Shown: positions 2,459 to 36,865 of the stretch, in pieces
Layout: each line of letters begins with the position of its first letter
How positions within the stretch are numbered: the stretch's first letter is position 1
Sequence record: OP555982.1
Reading direction: 5' to 3' (one strand)
Source of the DNA: Escherichia phage vB_EcoM-UFV11
DNA length: 64,000 bases
Notes under the pieces: generated by a model
The model's database searches: none
Seen by the model: the letters and a program-made list of their open reading frames with translations, nothing else
What the model was told of the DNA's origin: nothing
Program-made: the position numbers and the translations under genes

Positions 2459-4274
2459 ACTGGCTCATCCATTCTTTACGAAGGTCAGCATTATCTCCCA
2501 TGAGCATTTCAAAAAGCTCTTTCCAATTCTCAGGAAGTTTAACAACATCATATACTGGGTTTTGAATCATCTCACGATATTCAGATTTTTCCAAAGAGCC
2601 AAGTCCTTTAATATAACGGATGCTATGTTTAGGTAGAGCATCTTTGGCACTCTCATATTCAGCGACTGTATAAAACCATTCTTGTTTTTTACCGACCTGA
2701 GCGATGATTACAGGAGTTTTGACAAAGCGAATTCGTCCTTGCTCAAACAATTCTGGCCAATTACTAAAAAATCCGAGCAGAGAAGGATAAATGCTTCCTA
2801 AACCATCATGGTCAGCATCGGTCATAATAGCAATATTATGATAATTCAAGTTTTCAGCTTTTTCACCAAGAACTAATCCAGTGATTGCGCAAATATCAAA
2901 CAGTTCTTTGTTTTTAAGCATATCAGCATATGACATACCCCAGCTATTAAGAACTTTACCACGCAATGGATAACCACCGTGAAGTTCTTTATCACGAACA
3001 TCAATAAGATATCCGATAGCAGAATCACCCTCAGTCAAGAAAAGAGTAGTGTCAGCATCTTTACCACAAAGATTCGCTTTGATATGTTTATGAACCTTAG
3101 CTTTAGAAGCCTTTTTAGCTGCTTTAGTTTCTGCTGCTTTTTCTGCCGCCAATTTACGAGCAAGGGCAGCTTCAATGATTGGCATTAAAATTGCTTCATT
3201 ATTTAGAATAGCGCGTGAAATCTTTTTAGCATCAAGTTGAATATGACTACGAATTTCGCCAAATGGAGAAGTCAAACGCTCTTTAGTTTGAGAATCAAAT
3301 CGCATGTTTTTCATATCACGGACAAACATAACGATAGTCAAACATTCTTTGACACGTGCTTTAGTCACATCAATTTTGAACTTACGTTTGATTTGTGGAA
3401 TAAGGTCTTCACAAATATCATCCATAACACAGTCAATGTGATGGCCACCATTCTTAGTGTGAATGTTATTCACATAAGTTAATTGACGAAATCCATCCGG
3501 TGAACGACCAACAGCAATAGAACAATTTTCTTGTTCTTGAACAATAGCATGTTCATCATACTGTCGTGCATATTTCTTAAAATTGCCCTGAACCTTTTTA
3601 CCATTAAAGGTAAATTGAATATCAGGATAAACAACAGCAAGTGTCTGGAGACGATCTAGTGTAATGTCAAGATAAACTTGGGACAGCTCATTAGTTTCAA
3701 ATGACATAAAATCTGGAATGAAAGTAACACGAGTTCCTTTCCATTTTCCAGGAATAGTTTCCCAGGATTTATTTTCCATGCCATTTGAACAACGAACTAC
3801 AATATTATTTTGACCATCGCCAGTTTCACCGACAAACATCACAGAAAAAATGTTAGTTAAACTAGAACCAACACCATTCATACCACCGGTGACGCGTTCT
3901 TTATCATCACCAAAGTTACCACCCGCTTTTGGAATAGTCCATGCAGCAACAGGACCAGGAATTTCTTCACCGGTAGGTGTTTTAACCATCGCTTGCGGAA
4001 TACCGCGACCGTTATCTTCAACTGTCACCTGATTATTTTTAATGGTAACATTAATTTTATTCGCGAATTTAAACTTAGTACGAATACCTTCATCGACTGA
4101 GTTATCGATAATTTCATCAATAAGCTTAACAAGACCAGGTACATACTGAACACTTTCCCATTTACCAAACAGAAAGCGCTCATGCATTTCATTAGCAGAA
4201 GAGCCAATGTACATGCCACTACGCTTTTTGATATGTTCAATATCGCTCAGAATTTTAATTTCATTCTTAATCAT
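2457..4274 (-). CDS. 39: DNA topoisomerase II large subunit, uninterrupted gene 39 form (605 aa)
   Basis: 606-codon ORF; first in-frame codon is GTG, ATG at 4272-4274 with SD GAGGA 6 nt upstream; N-term MIKNEIKILSDIEHIKKRSGMYIGS; GyrB-like motifs. Confidence 0.9.
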   Translation of the reverse strand: MIKNEIKILSDIEHIKKRSGMYIGSSANEMHERFLFGKWESVQYVPGLVKLIDEIIDNSVDEGIRTKFKFANKINVTIKNNQVTVEDNGRGIPQAMVKTPTGEEIPGPVAAWTIPKAGGNFGDDKERVTGGMNGVGSSLTNIFSVMFVGETGDGQNNIVVRCSNGMENKSWETIPGKWKGTRVTFIPDFMSFETNELSQVYLDITLDRLQTLAVVYPDIQFTFNGKKVQGNFKKYARQYDEHAIVQEQENCSIAVGRSPDGFRQLTYVNNIHTKNGGHHIDCVMDDICEDLIPQIKRKFKIDVTKARVKECLTIVMFVRDMKNMRFDSQTKERLTSPFGEIRSHIQLDAKKISRAILNNEAILMPIIEAALARKLAAEKAAETKAAKKASKAKVHKHIKANLCGKDADTTLFLTEGDSAIGYLIDVRDKELHGGYPLRGKVLNSWGMSYADMLKNKELFDICAITGLVLGEKAENLNYHNIAIMTDADHDGLGSIYPSLLGFFSNWPELFEQGRIRFVKTPVIIAQVGKKQEWFYTVAEYESAKDALPKHSIRYIKGLGSLEKSEYREMIQNPVYDVVKLPENWKELFEMLMGDNADLRKEWMSQ

Positions 4275-11637: not shown

Positions 11638-11695
11638 CAACTTTATGCAAAAATGCTTTAAAAATTTCATGGTATAATGAATCTAAGTCCTTCCA

Positions 11696-15536: not shown

Positions 15537-16055
15537 TTAATAACCTCGGTCTTGACGTGCGAAATTTTCAGCATTTTTCAGATAATAAAGTTTAAAGATT
15601 TCTTCTGCTGTAAGACCAAGACCCTGGAACATATTCAGAACGAAATGAAGAATATCAATCATTTCAAATTTAATTTCTAACTGGTCTTGTGGAGACAAAT
15701 CAGTAATCAGAGTTTCACGACGTTCACCATGCTGCGACTTCCAAGGTTTCCATACAGCAGATGCGTCTTTTTCACCATTACTCATACCACCAAGAGAAGT
15801 CAGAAGTTCACGGAATTCATCGTCAATATAATCTTTCTGATTACGCAACCAATCAACAACTTCACCGGCAGTAGCTAAGTCATCAGGATGACGATTATAT
15901 TCAGGTTTATCTTTAGCTAAACGAACCTGCAAAGATTTCTGCATATCAAGCATTACCTGCAGCGGGTCTTTTTCATCGCCGAGAATATCCCAATATTCAT
16001 TTTGAGCTTTATCAGCGCCTTCAATCAGTTGTGAACATTCGTTAAAGTAAGCCAT
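15537..16055 (-). CDS. 56: dCTPase/dUTPase gp56 (172 aa)
   Basis: ORF track begins at upstream GTG; ATG at 16053-16055 gives MAYFNECSQLIEGADKAQNEYWDILGD, T4 gp56-like. Confidence 0.85.
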   Translation of the reverse strand: MAYFNECSQLIEGADKAQNEYWDILGDEKDPLQVMLDMQKSLQVRLAKDKPEYNRHPDDLATAGEVVDWLRNQKDYIDDEFRELLTSLGGMSNGEKDASAVWKPWKSQHGERRETLITDLSPQDQLEIKFEMIDILHFVLNMFQGLGLTAEEIFKLYYLKNAENFARQDRGY

Positions 16056-16126
16056 TATTTTTCCTTTCAATTCATGGGTTAGTAGATTAATTATACAATA
16101 AATATATAAAGCAATAAGGAGGACAT

Positions 16127-16327
16127 ATGGTACAAAAATTAATGGCACTTGTTAATGCCATCAAAGGTAATAAGAAACGTATAGCTTTTACTATTTCTGC
16201 TATGGTAGGAATTTTACTCTGGAACTTTATTTTATCACCAATTGCAATTGCGCATGGTGTTAATATTCCAGTAGTTACTCTTGATACATTCGTAGATCTA
16301 GCATTTGCTTTAGTTGGGTTGATTTAA
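16127..16327 (+). CDS. hypothetical small membrane protein (plus strand)
   Basis: 66-aa hydrophobic ORF; strong SD AAGGAGG 5 nt before ATG; between 56 and 61. Confidence 0.5.
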   Translation: MVQKLMALVNAIKGNKKRIAFTISAMVGILLWNFILSPIAIAHGVNIPVVTLDTFVDLAFALVGLI

Positions 16328-17352
16328 ATCTTAGCATATTTAGATAGCCGCATTTTAGCCATCAACCCCTGGGCAATATTATTTTTCATATATTCCATAA
16401 TTTGTTCAGGGGTTGCACCTTCCTTTCTAATCATATCATTAACATCTTTAGATTTCCAGGGAGATTTATCCCAAAACATAACCCTTTCTCCTGCATCAAC
16501 TAATTTAGTCATTCGTTTGATAGTGTCAGGGTGACGAGGTTCATTATCTAAAACCCACACTCGTCTATCTTTAAATGGAACAATTTCTAGGTCTAATTGA
16601 CCACCCGTAATAGCTATACCATTTTCAATAAAAAGTGAATCTATAGGTCCTTCTAGAACATATACATCGCCATCTTTAACTCGTTCGACTCCATAGATTT
16701 TTGTTGCCTCAGGATAAGCTTTAATGGTGATATATTTTTGAGGAGCATTTTTCTTTAATGCACGCCCTTGAAACGACTCGGCTTTTCCGTTAGCATTATA
16801 AATTGGAATAACAAGACGAGGCTCAGGTATTTCCTTTTTATATGTTCCCGGTGCTATGCTATTAACCAATTTAGGCCATTCGGTTGTAAACCAAAGATAT
16901 TTCCATTTATCCTTTGGAATACAACGAGCTTTTACGTATTTTATAATTGGATGGTCTTCCGCCAGTTTATCTAATCTAACACATGACGGAAGAGATTTAA
17001 TTATTTTCTTCTCAGGTTGTTTAGGAAGTTCTTTAGGTTTTTCTACTGGACGACTTTTACCTTTTTCTTTTCTTATTTCAAAGATATACTCACGATATAA
17101 ATCAGGTTCAAACTCCTTTAAATATATTCCGATTGGTGCGTGATAGTTACAGTTATAACAATGAATATTTCCTTCATTATTATCACCATAATACCATCCA
17201 CGAGCTTTATTCTGGTCGGTTTTTGAATCTCCACAAACGGGGCATCTAAACCGCAATTTAAAAGTTGAACTATTATTTACTTGTGTGAATTTAGGTAAAT
17301 GAGCCAATGCACGATACGCAAACTCATTATCAATCCAAGGTATTGATGACAT
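16324..17352 (-). CDS. 61: DNA primase gp61 (342 aa)
   Basis: 342-aa ORF; zinc-ribbon CPVCGDSK...CYNCNYH and TOPRIM-like region. Confidence 0.93.
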   Translation of the reverse strand: MSSIPWIDNEFAYRALAHLPKFTQVNNSSTFKLRFRCPVCGDSKTDQNKARGWYYGDNNEGNIHCYNCNYHAPIGIYLKEFEPDLYREYIFEIRKEKGKSRPVEKPKELPKQPEKKIIKSLPSCVRLDKLAEDHPIIKYVKARCIPKDKWKYLWFTTEWPKLVNSIAPGTYKKEIPEPRLVIPIYNANGKAESFQGRALKKNAPQKYITIKAYPEATKIYGVERVKDGDVYVLEGPIDSLFIENGIAITGGQLDLEIVPFKDRRVWVLDNEPRHPDTIKRMTKLVDAGERVMFWDKSPWKSKDVNDMIRKEGATPEQIMEYMKNNIAQGLMAKMRLSKYAKI

Positions 17353-17354
17353 TT

Positions 17355-17519
17355 TTACTCTTCTTTTTCTTTAGATTCCTCTTTTTTCTTTTTAGGAATC
17401 TGTTCAGGACCTTTATTTACTACAGCACCTGATGTTGTTCCAGTAGAGATATTTTCAGGATTACCACCTGAATCTCCAGCAACCATATCTTCTTTAATAA
17501 ATTCTTTATATGTTTTCAT
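17355..17519 (-). CDS. small protein with internal-protein-like N-terminus MKTYKEFIKE
   Basis: 55-aa ORF, Lys/Glu-rich tail, stop 3 nt before gene 61 ATG. Confidence 0.45.
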   Translation of the reverse strand: MKTYKEFIKEDMVAGDSGGNPENISTGTTSGAVVNKGPEQIPKKKKEESKEKEE

Positions 17520-17520
17520 A

Positions 17521-17877
17521 TTAACCTCTATTCATAAAAGCATTAAAAATTTGGTCATCAATCGATGGAATAGCAACTTTTTCTGCATCATTTAGCAAAT
17601 CATTAATTTCATCAGATAGCATAACACATGTACCTTTATTTCCTGTAATTGTTACTGCACAATTACGAACGTTTTCTTTATTAAATTTTAGGTTAATATT
17701 TTCGTAATGAAAATCCTTTAATGCTGAATATATTTTTAAAATAAAATTGTCTTTTACTACAATAAACCCAACCTCACTATTAAAACGTGGTTCATGGAAA
17801 CTGTAATAAACCTTTTCATCTATAAAATCGTATGAAATTTTTTCCATTTTTAAATATGAAAATTCAGAACTATACAT
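17521..17877 (-). CDS. hypothetical protein, paralog of 17879-18520
   Basis: 118-aa ORF; C-terminus SIDDQIFNAFMNRG shared with neighbour. Confidence 0.55.
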   Translation of the reverse strand: MYSSEFSYLKMEKISYDFIDEKVYYSFHEPRFNSEVGFIVVKDNFILKIYSALKDFHYENINLKFNKENVRNCAVTITGNKGTCVMLSDEINDLLNDAEKVAIPSIDDQIFNAFMNRG

Positions 17878-17878
17878 A

Positions 17879-18520
17879 TTAACCTTTATTCATAAAAGCA
17901 TTAAAAATTTGATCGTCAATAGAAACTTTTACTTTAGGATGTTCTTCAAACGGTAATTCATATCCACATATTACAATTTTGTGATCGATACCAAAATACA
18001 CAGAAGCAATATGATTAATATTATTTTCAGTGAAATCTAAATCAACATCAATATCTTTTTGACTAACGCTCAAAGGATAATTAATACGAATAATTCGATT
18101 ATCTTTAACAAAGATTCCACCGACATACTCTGTGTTGCGTTTAAAGTTTACACGTTTCCTAAATGAAAAATATTCAGGTTCTTTATGAGCCCGACTCATA
18201 GGACACAATGAGTAGCTAGAATAAGAGATGTCAAATCCTACACCTTCAATATGAGCCAACGTGTCATGATTAAACCAATTATAATCATACGCCAAATCCA
18301 TTATATTGTAATATGTGAAAGGCACCGGATTAACATCATATATTGTACCTTTAAAATCTGCCCAGGCAACGATTTCATTATCTTTAACAATTACAAAAAT
18401 TGTGCCAATAAGATATCCACGGTTATTTTCATCAGGCGTTATATTATAACATTGTGCATCAGGAAATTTACCGTATTTAAACGGTGGATTTTTGTGCATA
18501 TAATAAATCATATTATTCAC
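17879..18520 (-). CDS. hypothetical protein
   Basis: 213-aa ORF; C-terminus VSIDDQIFNAFMNKG. Confidence 0.55.
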   Translation of the reverse strand: MNNMIYYMHKNPPFKYGKFPDAQCYNITPDENNRGYLIGTIFVIVKDNEIVAWADFKGTIYDVNPVPFTYYNIMDLAYDYNWFNHDTLAHIEGVGFDISYSSYSLCPMSRAHKEPEYFSFRKRVNFKRNTEYVGGIFVKDNRIIRINYPLSVSQKDIDVDLDFTENNINHIASVYFGIDHKIVICGYELPFEEHPKVKVSIDDQIFNAFMNKG

Positions 18521-18806
18521 CTGTGATTTCGGTTACGATATCTTTGTTATCAAAATTAGGGTCACAATACAAAACATAGTTATACTGCATCACACCACCT
18601 GATTTAAGCTGTTTTTGTACTTCAACTTTCATATTGGGACGATCACGCTCAACGATATTCATAATATCCGCTTCAATTTGAGTTTCAACTTCAGTCTGAT
18701 CTGCAGTCATAGACCATTCACACAAATCTTTATCATAACCTGCCATAGCAGGCTGAGCAGCACAAGAAGCTAAAGCAAAAATTGCAGCAAAGATAAATTT
18801 TTTCAT
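18513..18806 (-). CDS. sp: Spackle periplasmic protein Sp (97 aa)
   Basis: 97-aa ORF with signal peptide MKKFIFAAIFALASCAAQPAMA. Confidence 0.75.
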   Translation of the reverse strand: MKKFIFAAIFALASCAAQPAMAGYDKDLCEWSMTADQTEVETQIEADIMNIVERDRPNMKVEVQKQLKSGGVMQYNYVLYCDPNFDNKDIVTEITGE

Positions 18807-18866: not shown

Positions 18867-19124
18867 CTATTTTAAAACTTCTGCATAATCACATGTTACA
18901 AACTGTTTCTCTAACTTGACGATTTTACGAAAATACCTTTTACACTGACGAATCTGTCGCTTCGTAGGACGTACAGCAAACTTAATAAATTCCACTCGAC
19001 CAAATGGAGGACTTTCTTCTGCTGGAATATCTAGCACCAATTCCCACGTATCTGCAATAAGTGCTTTGAATTGCGTATTTTTCCTGACGTTATACGGAGT
19101 AGGTTTAAATAAAACAATATGCAT
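18867..19124 (-). CDS. hypothetical protein
   Basis: start moved to ATG at 19124 with SD GAGGA; avoids overlap with dmd. Confidence 0.5.
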   Translation of the reverse strand: MHIVLFKPTPYNVRKNTQFKALIADTWELVLDIPAEESPPFGRVEFIKFAVRPTKRQIRQCKRYFRKIVKLEKQFVTCDYAEVLK

Positions 19125-19125
19125 A

Positions 19126-19308
19126 TTATCCTCGGCAATCCACTTCGCACACTTTCTTGTCATCAATGAAAGCTTCAACTAATGCTTTATTAACTTCAGC
19201 ATATTGAGTAGTAGCCCATTGAACGTCATCTTTCATCATTGTGGTTTCTTTAGTAAACATGCTTTCATTCTTAAACCACCCCATAAAAACTACCTTTACC
19301 AATTCCAT
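19126..19308 (-). CDS. dmd: Dmd, discriminator of mRNA degradation (60 aa)
   Basis: 60-aa ORF MELVKVVFMGWFKNESMFTKE; T4 order. Confidence 0.8.
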   Translation of the reverse strand: MELVKVVFMGWFKNESMFTKETTMMKDDVQWATTQYAEVNKALVEAFIDDKKVCEVDCRG

Positions 19309-19337: not shown

Positions 19338-19367
19338 ACTATACCATAGTCTTGTCAGCTTGTAAAC
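19338..19367 (-). promoter_or_regulatory. T4-type early promoter
   Basis: minus strand GTTTACAAGCTGACAAGACTATGGTATAGT. Confidence 0.5.
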
Positions 19368-20794
19368 TAAAATTTTAATTCATTTGCCAAAGCATCTAAC
19401 TGAGCTCGAGCTGATTCGTTTCTTTGATAGCGATTCTGTTCAGCCTGAATCTGCTGTGAACCTGCTACTTCACTCACTTCGGTTGGAGTAGAATCTTGTT
19501 CAATTTCTACCCATTTTTGATTTCCTTTTTGAACACCCATCAAAAACTTATTCCACTTATTCTTATCACCATATCGTGATTTGATTTGCTTAATGAGTTG
19601 TTGTTCAGCAGCTGCTAGCTCCTCGGTTTCAATGACCGCAAGCATAAAATCAGCTGTTGCTGGAAGACCAGCAGATTCTGCAATATCGCTCATGTTAACA
19701 TCGGAAGAGTCCCAAGCTTGTTTACCGACCTGTGCTGCAGTCCAAAGAACAGTTTCTGTTTCAACAGCCAGAGCACGTAATTCCTCTGCAATAGCTTTAA
19801 CAGTGGTGTAACTATTTTCTGAATAAACTCTAATGCGGCAAGATTTACAAATACCTAGATAGTCGACAATAATGATTGTTGGAACAAAATTCTTTTTGAG
19901 CTTCAATTCATTCAAGAGAGACCTGAATGTGTTAGCGTCTGCTCCACCAGTAGGATATTGCTTAACGATTAAACGACCGAGAGTAGATTTCTCACGCCAT
20001 TTTTCCATTTTTCCTTTATACTCGGCATAAGAAATATGTCCATCATCAATATCGTCAAGAGAAACATCGAGCATGTTAGCATCAATACGTTTAGCACAGA
20101 CTTCTTCTGCCATTTCCATGGAGATATAAAGAACGTTATGACCAAGCTGCAAATAATCTGCTGCTAATGAACAAAGTCCTAATGATTTACCAACGTTAAC
20201 GCCAGCCATTAAAACGTTCAGTGTTCCAGTCTCAGCTCCGCCTTTAGTAATTTTGTTTAGAATTCTGAGTTTAAATGGAACCTTACGAGCTTTATTCATA
20301 TAAGATAGCCAACGCGCTTCATAGTCATCCATCCAATCATGACCAACGTAGCTATCAAATGAAATTGATAATGCTTGGCGCATGATGTCAGGAATAGCAC
20401 CTACATCTGGCATTTTCTTATTTCGTTTTTCCGGAGGAAGCTCAGCATTAGTTTGAATTTCAATTATTTTAGATGTGGCGTTAAACATCGCCCTTTGCTG
20501 AACATATTTTTCTGTTTCTTTTACTAACCAGCTATGGTCTTCCGGAGAATCGGCCAGTTTTGAAATAAGTGTTTTTACACCAGAATATTCTGTTTCAGTA
20601 AATGAACTATTTTCTAATGCAACATTTAACGCATTAATAGATGGAACGTTATGGTATTCATTAACATGAGATTTAATTAATTTGAATGTATTTTTAGCTG
20701 GACCACTTTCAAAATATTCTGAATCCATATATGGCCAAACTTTTGAAAAATAAGCTTGATCAAATATGAGATGAGAAAGAATAATTTCTACCAC
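19367..20794 (-). CDS. 41: replicative DNA helicase gp41 (475 aa)
   Basis: DnaB-family motifs; GTG start at 20794 with SD AAGGAG. Confidence 0.93.
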   Translation of the reverse strand: MVEIILSHLIFDQAYFSKVWPYMDSEYFESGPAKNTFKLIKSHVNEYHNVPSINALNVALENSSFTETEYSGVKTLISKLADSPEDHSWLVKETEKYVQQRAMFNATSKIIEIQTNAELPPEKRNKKMPDVGAIPDIMRQALSISFDSYVGHDWMDDYEARWLSYMNKARKVPFKLRILNKITKGGAETGTLNVLMAGVNVGKSLGLCSLAADYLQLGHNVLYISMEMAEEVCAKRIDANMLDVSLDDIDDGHISYAEYKGKMEKWREKSTLGRLIVKQYPTGGADANTFRSLLNELKLKKNFVPTIIIVDYLGICKSCRIRVYSENSYTTVKAIAEELRALAVETETVLWTAAQVGKQAWDSSDVNMSDIAESAGLPATADFMLAVIETEELAAAEQQLIKQIKSRYGDKNKWNKFLMGVQKGNQKWVEIEQDSTPTEVSEVAGSQQIQAEQNRYQRNESARAQLDALANELKF

Positions 20795-36845: not shown

Positions 36846-36865
36846 ATAGGAGCCGAAGCTCCTAT
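36846..36865 (-). terminator. hairpin GGAGC-UUCG-GCUCC
   Basis: UUCG hairpin overlapping stop of small ORF. Confidence 0.4.

Follow-up and report, generated by a model that had tools for sequence, protein, structure and literature searches.

A direct repeat at the 3′ ends of two adjacent AdfA-family genes in a Tequatrovirus probably reflects a conserved C-terminal helix with overlapping expression signals

Introduction

AdfA (anti-DarT factor A), the product of gene 61.2, is among the few phage proteins known to neutralize a DNA ADP-ribosylating toxin by binding, and its variation has been used to explain DarTG sensitivity. Its target is the DNA ADP-ribosyltransferase DarT1 (LeRoux et al., 2022; described in PMC11825919 and PMC9391042). 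Specificity is set by residue 164 (RB69 numbering), where a histidine allows binding to DarT1 and an arginine does not, and phage T2 has been described as naturally without an adfA homolog (PMC11825919). The interval between genes 61 and 41, containing dmd, tifA (61.4; the anti-ToxIN factor) and adfA (61.2), was named the 'anti-TA island' by Srikant et al. (2022; PMC9391042). In that work the other genes of the island are proposed as anti-toxin candidates, the amplifications and deletions seen in T4 are traced to recombination at short homologies, and T4 is described to recombine even at microhomologies of 6–10 bp.

Two further systems are relevant here. The T4 middle promoter P61 has its start site at position 19122 (Hinton, 2010; PMC2988021, Table 1, citing Marshall, Sharma & Hinton, 1999). 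In the PeSLs, an early promoter of the sigma-70 type and a terminator stem-loop are combined in one intergenic element (PMC2839356; Comeau et al., 2014, PMC4122927).

Here, we describe a locus in a 64,000-nucleotide stretch of DNA (the window) from a Tequatrovirus (T4-like) genome, in which adfA is followed by a half-size relative with a nearly identical 3′ end.

Results

Organization of the AdfA locus

The 1.6 kb that was tested is 100% identical to Escherichia phages vB_EcoM-UFV05/06/09/10. All genes at the locus are on the minus strand, in the following order.

19367–20794, minus strand: gene 41, helicase
19126–19308, minus strand: dmd
18867–19178, minus strand: 61.4/tifA (DUF7279) ORF, listed as 103 amino acids with a TTG start overlapping dmd
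18513–18806, minus strand: sp (spackle; Pfam PF25676, E = 2.1e-45), the upstream neighbour of adfA
17879–18511, minus strand: adfA (gene 61.2), anti-DarT factor A, 210 amino acids from the ATG; Pfam PF23813
17521–17877, minus strand: small AdfA-family paralog, 118 amino acids; RB32ORF033c or ar1_036 in other records
17355–17519, minus strand: gene 61.1 (54 amino acids), downstream of repeat copy 1 (see below) and translationally coupled
16324–17352, minus strand: gene 61, DNA primase, expressible from P61 transcripts

The adfA reading frame extends upstream to a GTG at 18520, which would give a protein of 213 amino acids. The start is more probably the ATG at 18511 (210 amino acids), because all homologs are 208–216 amino acids long and the stop codon of sp is directly followed by a T and this ATG (TAA-T-ATG). 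The true start of 61.4 probably also sits further downstream than listed; the T4 version has 85 amino acids. The whole 61–41 interval is dense in counter-defence genes (dmd, tifA, sp, adfA and the small paralog).

Outside this interval, the dCTPase gene 56 is found at 15537–16148. In T4 a dam methyltransferase gene lies between genes 56 and 61. It is absent in the window, as in RB18, RB3 and Shigella phage A2, and a 66-amino-acid ORF of the dam.1 (RB32ORF030w) type is present at 16127–16327 on the plus strand. Gene 61.1 of the window is 96–100% identical to that of T4, RB18 and RB3, and a Pfam search with its product returned nothing at E ≤ 0.1. The ortholog in the Shigella phage A2 record is labelled 'major capsid protein T4-like' through an InterPro match. 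The N-terminus of gp61.1 (MKTYKEFIKE) resembles MKTYQEFIAE, the N-terminal signal that directs the internal proteins of T4 to the capsid, and gp61.1 could be a small prohead-targeted peptide.

The large and the small protein are paralogs

The large protein matches the AdfA family (Pfam PF23813) over its full length with 452.9 bits, compared with a curated cutoff of 27 bits. The small protein also scores above this cutoff (34.4 bits), but covers only positions 113–211 of the 211 in the profile. The two-half architecture of about 210 residues that characterizes AdfA is thus found in the large protein, while the 118-amino-acid protein has the C-terminal half only. The small protein matches phrog_4122 over its full length, and precomputed Pfam labels on the homologs agree with the AdfA-family assignment. 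In a direct BLASTP comparison the two proteins are 37% identical over 106 residues (E = 5e-11), and aligning a profile of the C-terminal half of AdfA with that of the small family using hhalign gives a probability of 97.7% (E = 1.8e-12). Both genes sit between sp and 61.1, the same position in all fetched loci. Judged by these comparisons, the two proteins are true paralogs, as a preliminary description of this DNA had supposed. 'Some similarity to gp61.2' is already mentioned in the annotations of the RB18 and Kha5h records, and we found no published functional data on the small paralog in the literature.

The specificity residue 164 lies in the half that is common to both proteins. By residue mapping it corresponds to His167 in AdfA of the window, i.e. 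by sequence the DarT1-binding allele. In the small protein the aligned column is occupied by Asn72, or by His72 in variant P0005, and AdfA variant P0010 likewise carries an asparagine at the specificity position. Overall this position is polymorphic, with three alternatives in AdfA (His, Arg and Asn) and two in the small protein (Asn and His), a pattern consistent with an arms-race site. Two aberrant family members were also noted. In Shigella phage CT01 (OK018184.1, 222–784) adfA appears to be split into ORFs of about 72 and 101 amino acids, with the tail kept on the downstream piece, probably as a result of an internal deletion or as a pseudogene. Homolog P0028 (102 amino acids) is an apparent chimera of an AdfA fragment and unrelated sequence, probably an assembly artefact.

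AlphaFold2 models the small protein as five strands followed by helices (pLDDT 79.5); in the model of AdfA this succession of elements occurs two times (pLDDT 70.4). AdfA therefore looks like two β-sheet-plus-helix domains and the small protein like a single one that matches the C-terminal half. The shared tail forms the terminal helix in both models (helix pLDDT of about 60 in the small protein). An internal duplication within AdfA is suggested by the similar order of secondary-structure elements in a model of pLDDT 70; the hhalign profile match between its N-terminal and C-terminal halves is weak (12% probability).

The family is narrow, since an exhaustive profile search recovered only ten clusters among 1.84 billion representative proteins; word-indexed homolog searches yielded few and close sequences. 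Foldseek against BFVD returned family members only, including the 145-amino-acid VR25 protein at a TM-score of 0.56. Searching the solved structures by sequence gave nothing below E = 0.35, no named fold matches the AdfA-family models and no fold match offered a mechanism. PADLOC gave zero matches.

A 49-nucleotide direct repeat encodes an invariant C-terminal peptide

The 3′ ends of the two genes together with the start codons of the genes that follow them form a single direct repeat of 49 nucleotides.

17517–17565, minus strand: repeat copy 1, the last 14 codons of the small gene, its stop codon, a T and the ATG of 61.1
17875–17923, minus strand: repeat copy 2, the last 14 codons of adfA, its stop codon, a T and the ATG of the small gene

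A repeat search places the copies 358 nucleotides apart, with 45 of the 49 positions identical. Both proteins terminate in SIDDQIFNAFMN(R/K)G, and the bases past the stop codon (T plus the ATG of the next gene; CATATTAACC on the plus strand) are the same in both copies. The preliminary description had noted near-identical C-termini, about 45 nucleotides of near-identical DNA and a likeness of the bases carrying the next start codon, all of which agree with the present data.

The region is AT-rich, and one might ask whether the similarity arose by chance or is that of a short low-complexity stretch, the latter being what the preliminary description had named as its refutation. This is hardly conceivable. 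When up to three mismatches are allowed, the repeat occurs at exactly two sites in the 64 kb, against 0.00 expected from 100 dinucleotide shuffles, by which chance similarity is ruled out. In addition, the sequence is not low-complexity, the two proteins are homologous over about 100 residues and thus well beyond the tail, and the tail motif is conserved across hundreds of phage records.

All family ORFs in the fetched loci end in [SAT][IVT]DDQIFNAFM[NK][RK][GD] followed by the stop codon, whatever the type of body that precedes it. The core DDQIFNAFM is invariant in every member recovered, comprising proteins of 117–219 amino acids, three body types and several genera, and it is retained in divergent members from metagenomes. 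The members sharing it are 208 (T4 type), 210 (window type), 216–219 (RB69 type), 117–125 (small) and 146–157 (Dhakavirus type) amino acids long. In an alignment of the 12 most divergent members, with a mean identity of 36%, DDQIFNAFM accounts for nine of the 13 invariant columns.

In a codon alignment of adfA with the small gene, nucleotide identity is 0.31–0.56 in the body, with third positions near-random, and 0.82 in the last 15 codons. The diverged bodies with their near-random third positions indicate that the duplication is old. The onset of DNA similarity coincides exactly with the start of the peptide that is invariant throughout the family. Between genera the tail codons vary synonymously (GAT/GAC, CAA/CAG, ATT/ATA, GCT/GCC/GCA, TTT/TTC and AGA/CGA; the Asn codon varies too) while the peptide stays constant, which argues for selection acting on the peptide.

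Four natural states and a recombination joint

Copy number at this locus is variable across T-even genomes, a comparison that had been proposed at the outset. Four states are found between sp and 61.1: both genes (the window, RB18, AR1, Lutter and others), adfA only (T4 and CM8), the small gene only (T2 and Shigella phage A2) and neither (RB3). By rough tblastn counts, full-length AdfA is present in about 486 records and the small gene in about 294; in about 113 of the latter it is the only one of the two, which leaves about 181 records with both. The loci examined are related, and the genome counts are therefore not counts of independent events. In T2 (PV648364.1, 1201–1557) the small paralog is 94.9% identical to that of the window and the arrangement is sp–small gene–61.1. 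As a separate matter, the small paralog was considered as the anti-DarTG2 factor of T4, which is ruled out: T4 is without the gene, and the factor is Tk.4/AdfM.

In RB18 the two tails are 358 nucleotides apart and share 40 identical nucleotides, one mismatch and eight further identical nucleotides. T4 equals RB18 minus exactly 358 nucleotides, with both breakpoints inside the repeat, in its stretch of 40 identical nucleotides. Its single tail is a hybrid, with a 5′ flank of the 61.2 type and a 3′ end and junction from the copy that adjoins 61.1. On the basis of these alignments, recombination has truly taken place at the tail among phages of this group; in which direction the indels went is our inference.

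A locus from another genus (L013; IMG/VR UViG 2706795401, 2760–3594) contains tandem family genes of 157 and 119 amino acids in the same layout. Together with locus L015 it shows the same cassette behaviour with a different pair of genes. The tails in L013 are ...FMKRD for the 157-amino-acid protein of the Dhakavirus type and ...FMKRG for the small member of 119 amino acids. In L015 the 157-amino-acid gene stands alone and keeps the RD-type tail.

A simple microhomology origin was also considered for the sp-to-61.1 junction in genomes without adfA. The sequence TGAATA is common to the end of sp and the tail. The junction observed, TAATTAGAGGYTRATATG, differs from the product that such an origin predicts.

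Recent copying of the tail

The tails recombine, as the T4/RB18 indel shows, and the step in identity is sharp (about 0.4–0.5 in the body against 0.82–0.92 in the tail). These features could be taken to mean that one gene's 3′ end and the start of its neighbour were copied not long ago, by recombination or segmental duplication, or are still being copied by gene conversion, a reading that builds on the proposal in the preliminary description. In the window, 9 of 12 degenerate codons are identical between the two tails, compared with 6.5 expected from the codon usage of the window (P = 0.12), so that the observed codon identity fits a shared peptide combined with codon bias. Pairs of tails from different genera are mostly within the codon-bias expectation as well (P = 0.23–0.62). 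In RB18 and Kha5h, on the other hand, all 12 degenerate codons are identical (P = 0.0004, uncorrected), which speaks for this reading. Further excesses are seen between the L006 tails (11 of 12; P = 0.006, uncorrected) and between the tail of the small gene in the window and that of Dhakavirus C6 (11 of 13 codons; P = 0.015, uncorrected). Homogenization at the nucleotide level, either by tail-to-tail recombination or through promoter constraint, therefore contributes in some related genomes, but not in this window. This test of concerted evolution rests on about ten genomes that carry both genes; IMG/VR contributed only 19 loci anchored on sp.

The four differences between the tails of the window are also present, unchanged, in AR1 and Lutter, and there is accordingly no sign of within-genome homogenization in this lineage. 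The boundary of the similarity is that of a motif which is invariant in other genera despite different codons, and the TAATATG stop/start junction that extends the repeat into the next gene is common, occurring 23 times on the minus strand of the window. Given the codon test, the invariant peptide and the common junction, the window needs no recent DNA copy, and the codon-bias test together with the family-wide invariance of the tail led us to reject such a copy here. What stands of the original proposal is that a duplication did occur, as the paralogs attest, and that the tail serves as a recombination joint; what is not supported is recent copying in this phage, where the bodies have diverged. 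As the reason for the near-identity in the window, recent copying or conversion is in our view very unlikely.

The tail codons overlap a middle promoter and ribosome-binding sites

We located P61 in the T4 genome (NC_000866) after validating the coordinate system on P56/69 and Pdam. Positions −12 to −7 read TAATAT and positions −34 to −25 read TAATGCTTTT, the latter inside the tail of 61.2, with a spacer of 12 nucleotides. The corresponding elements in the window are the following.

17511–17545, minus strand: ortholog of T4 P61 (MotA box TAATGCTTTT at 17545–17536, 12-nucleotide spacer, −10 element TAATAT at 17523–17518)
17869–17903, minus strand: predicted second promoter of the P61 type, within the tail of adfA (MotA box at 17903–17894, −10 element at 17881–17876)
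17525–17528, minus strand: Shine–Dalgarno sequence GAGG for 61.1, within the Arg-Gly codons (AGA GGT) of the small gene, five nucleotides before the ATG
17883–17886, minus strand: weakened Shine–Dalgarno sequence AAGG for the small gene, within the Lys-Gly codons of the adfA tail

Copy 1 equals T4 P61 base for base across the MotA box, spacer and −10 element. Its MotA box falls in the Asn-Ala-Phe codons of the tail, its −10 element consists of the stop codon, the T and the AT of the 61.1 ATG, and the predicted start at 17511 is in codon 3 of 61.1. In copy 2 a single base of the spacer differs (AAAGG for AGAGG) and the predicted start at 17869 is in codon 3 of the small gene. The MotA box TAATGCTTTT agrees in both copies with nine of the ten positions of (a/t)(a/t)(a/t)TGCTT(t/c)A, the motif expected around −30, its last position being T instead of A, and MotA tolerates such deviations (PMC2988021). 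A −10 element of the form TAnnnT, expected 12 ± 1 bp from the MotA box, is present in both copies as TAATAT after 12 nucleotides. Both tail promoters are among 12 matches to a relaxed MotA pattern on the minus strand, where shuffled sequences give about two per strand, and in the Lutter record each tail bears an annotated promoter. On sequence grounds the window carries two copies of a P61-type promoter, and copy 2 presumably fires. Scanning both tails for sigma-70-like promoters and intrinsic terminators yielded neither.

Elsewhere in the window, the T4 middle-promoter pattern in its strict form (wwwTGCTT[tc]A, 11–13 nucleotides, TAnnnT) is matched at 36846, 30915, 16116 and 155 on the minus strand and at 11651 on the plus strand. 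These sites are likely to be genuine MotA-dependent promoters. The match at 16116 is just upstream of gene 56, like T4 P56/69.

The sequence AGAGG(T/C)TAAT precedes the ATG of 61.1 in every Tequatrovirus-type locus examined, whichever the architecture. The tail before the small gene is AAAGGT or AGAGAT, and never AGAGGT, in ten of the ten genomes carrying both genes. In RB3 (KM606994.1, 1722–1733 and flanks), which has no family gene, TAATAT is kept but there is no MotA box upstream of 61.1, and P61 thus travels with the AdfA-family tail. The primase gene of RB3 must be transcribed from other promoters. A further peculiarity of RB3 is an additional ORF, RB3_036, that separates sp from 61.4.

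With P61 mapping exactly onto the tail, constraint at the DNA level, exerted by this promoter and the downstream ribosome-binding site, could be considered the main cause of the repeat, with the invariant peptide as a passenger. Across the tails sampled from Tequatrovirus-type loci, the stretch that runs from the Gln codon CAA to the Asn codon AAT does not vary, but the Ser and Asp codons immediately before it do, and the last two codons vary (RG, KG or RD) exactly where the strength of the Shine–Dalgarno sequence changes. However, in other genera the MotA core changes from TGCTT to TGCCT or TGCAT and the −10 element to TAAAAT or TGATAT without any change in the peptide, DDQI is invariant although it lies upstream of the MotA box, and the divergent members from metagenomes still keep the peptide. 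We therefore take the promoter to add a constraint within Tequatrovirus, not to cause the invariance of the peptide, and regard DNA-level constraint as an unlikely main cause.

Discussion

The explanation that we favour, and consider well founded, is that the two genes are old and diverged AdfA paralogs, whose tail is kept by selection on the protein with expression signals overlapping it, and that the repeat is a recombination site that arose as a by-product. Both paralogs lie in the 'anti-toxin island' of a Tequatrovirus, which is bounded by primase gene 61 and helicase gene 41, and the near-identity over about 45 nucleotides would be that of the most conserved element of the family, the codons of the C-terminal helix DDQIFNAFM(N/K)(R/K)G. 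This helix is probably part of a conserved binding surface. Selection on the protein would maintain the bases of the tail, which also hold three overlapping expression signals: the Shine–Dalgarno sequence GAGG in the Arg-Gly codons, the TAA-T-ATG junction, and the MotA box and −10 element of P61. Transcription from P61 would begin just inside the next gene, so that primase gene 61 would be the gene served by this promoter. Where two genes of the family stand in tandem the composite element is present twice, and the resulting direct repeat of 40–49 nucleotides would allow T4-type recombination to delete or add one gene cleanly, giving the four natural states.

We also entertain a broader interpretation, which is possible though on balance doubtful. 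The invariant helix may be a shared module of modular toxin inhibitors, with the single-domain paralog as an independent anti-toxin factor and the genes as stackable cassettes. The helix would then act as a common anchor, which might for example bind a feature conserved among DarT-like toxins or some shared partner. Target specificity would be set by the variable β-sheet body and the helix bearing residue 164/72, and the single-domain paralog would have a target of its own. As the codons of the helix also carry P61 and a ribosome-binding site, each gene would be self-contained and could be stacked, swapped or dropped at the tail. If true, such cassettes would be a counterpart, within coding sequence, of PeSL-mediated shuffling in an anti-defence island.

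Returning to the explanation based on old paralogs with a protein-selected tail, its parts are known (AdfA, P61 and recombination at short repeats), and the feature is explained and fairly ordinary. The overlap of these parts in one element of 45 nucleotides and the neglected half-size paralog seem not to have been described previously. One short stretch of DNA encodes a conserved protein motif and also acts as ribosome-binding site, as a middle promoter (mapped in T4) for the primase gene and as a joint for recombination. Because the promoter lies inside the tail of an accessory gene, gain or loss of an anti-defence gene alters the promoter supply of an essential replication gene, as in RB3 with its missing MotA box. 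Furthermore, many T-even phages carry a half-size AdfA relative that functional studies have overlooked (about 294 records, about 113 of them without AdfA, T2 included), and this affects how 'adfA-negative' phages are to be read. Current understanding is refined at the level of annotation and not overturned.

Comparison with known systems

Three features identify the large gene as AdfA itself: the full-length match to the Pfam family, the location between sp and 61.1, and the histidine that allows DarT1 to be bound. The small protein shares with AdfA the G.I.VKDN.I core and the tail, in addition to its score above the Pfam cutoff. It differs in having one domain (113–211) instead of two and an asparagine (histidine in P0005) at the specificity position.

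Copy 1 of the promoter is identical to T4 P61 through the MotA box, spacer and −10 element, and copy 2 is one spacer base off. T4 has one copy, whereas this phage has two, and the mapped start is that of T4. Unlike in T4, transcription from copy 2 would start inside the small gene and make 61.1 translatable from a middle transcript. In the sources consulted on P61 we found no remark on its place inside the codons of a conserved protein motif.

The locus is that of the T4 'anti-TA island' (PMC9391042). T4, however, is without the small paralog, and the events described there took place at microhomologies of 6–10 bp around dmd–tifA and not at the AdfA tail.

As in the PeSLs (PMC2839356; Comeau et al., 2014, PMC4122927), a promoter-bearing repeat flanks an accessory gene of variable occurrence, which can be gained or lost cleanly when the repeat copies recombine. 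The combination that defines a PeSL, an intergenic sigma-70-like early promoter with a terminator stem-loop, is seen in neither tail. The AdfA-tail element instead lies within coding sequence and carries a MotA-type middle promoter with no stem-loop terminator.
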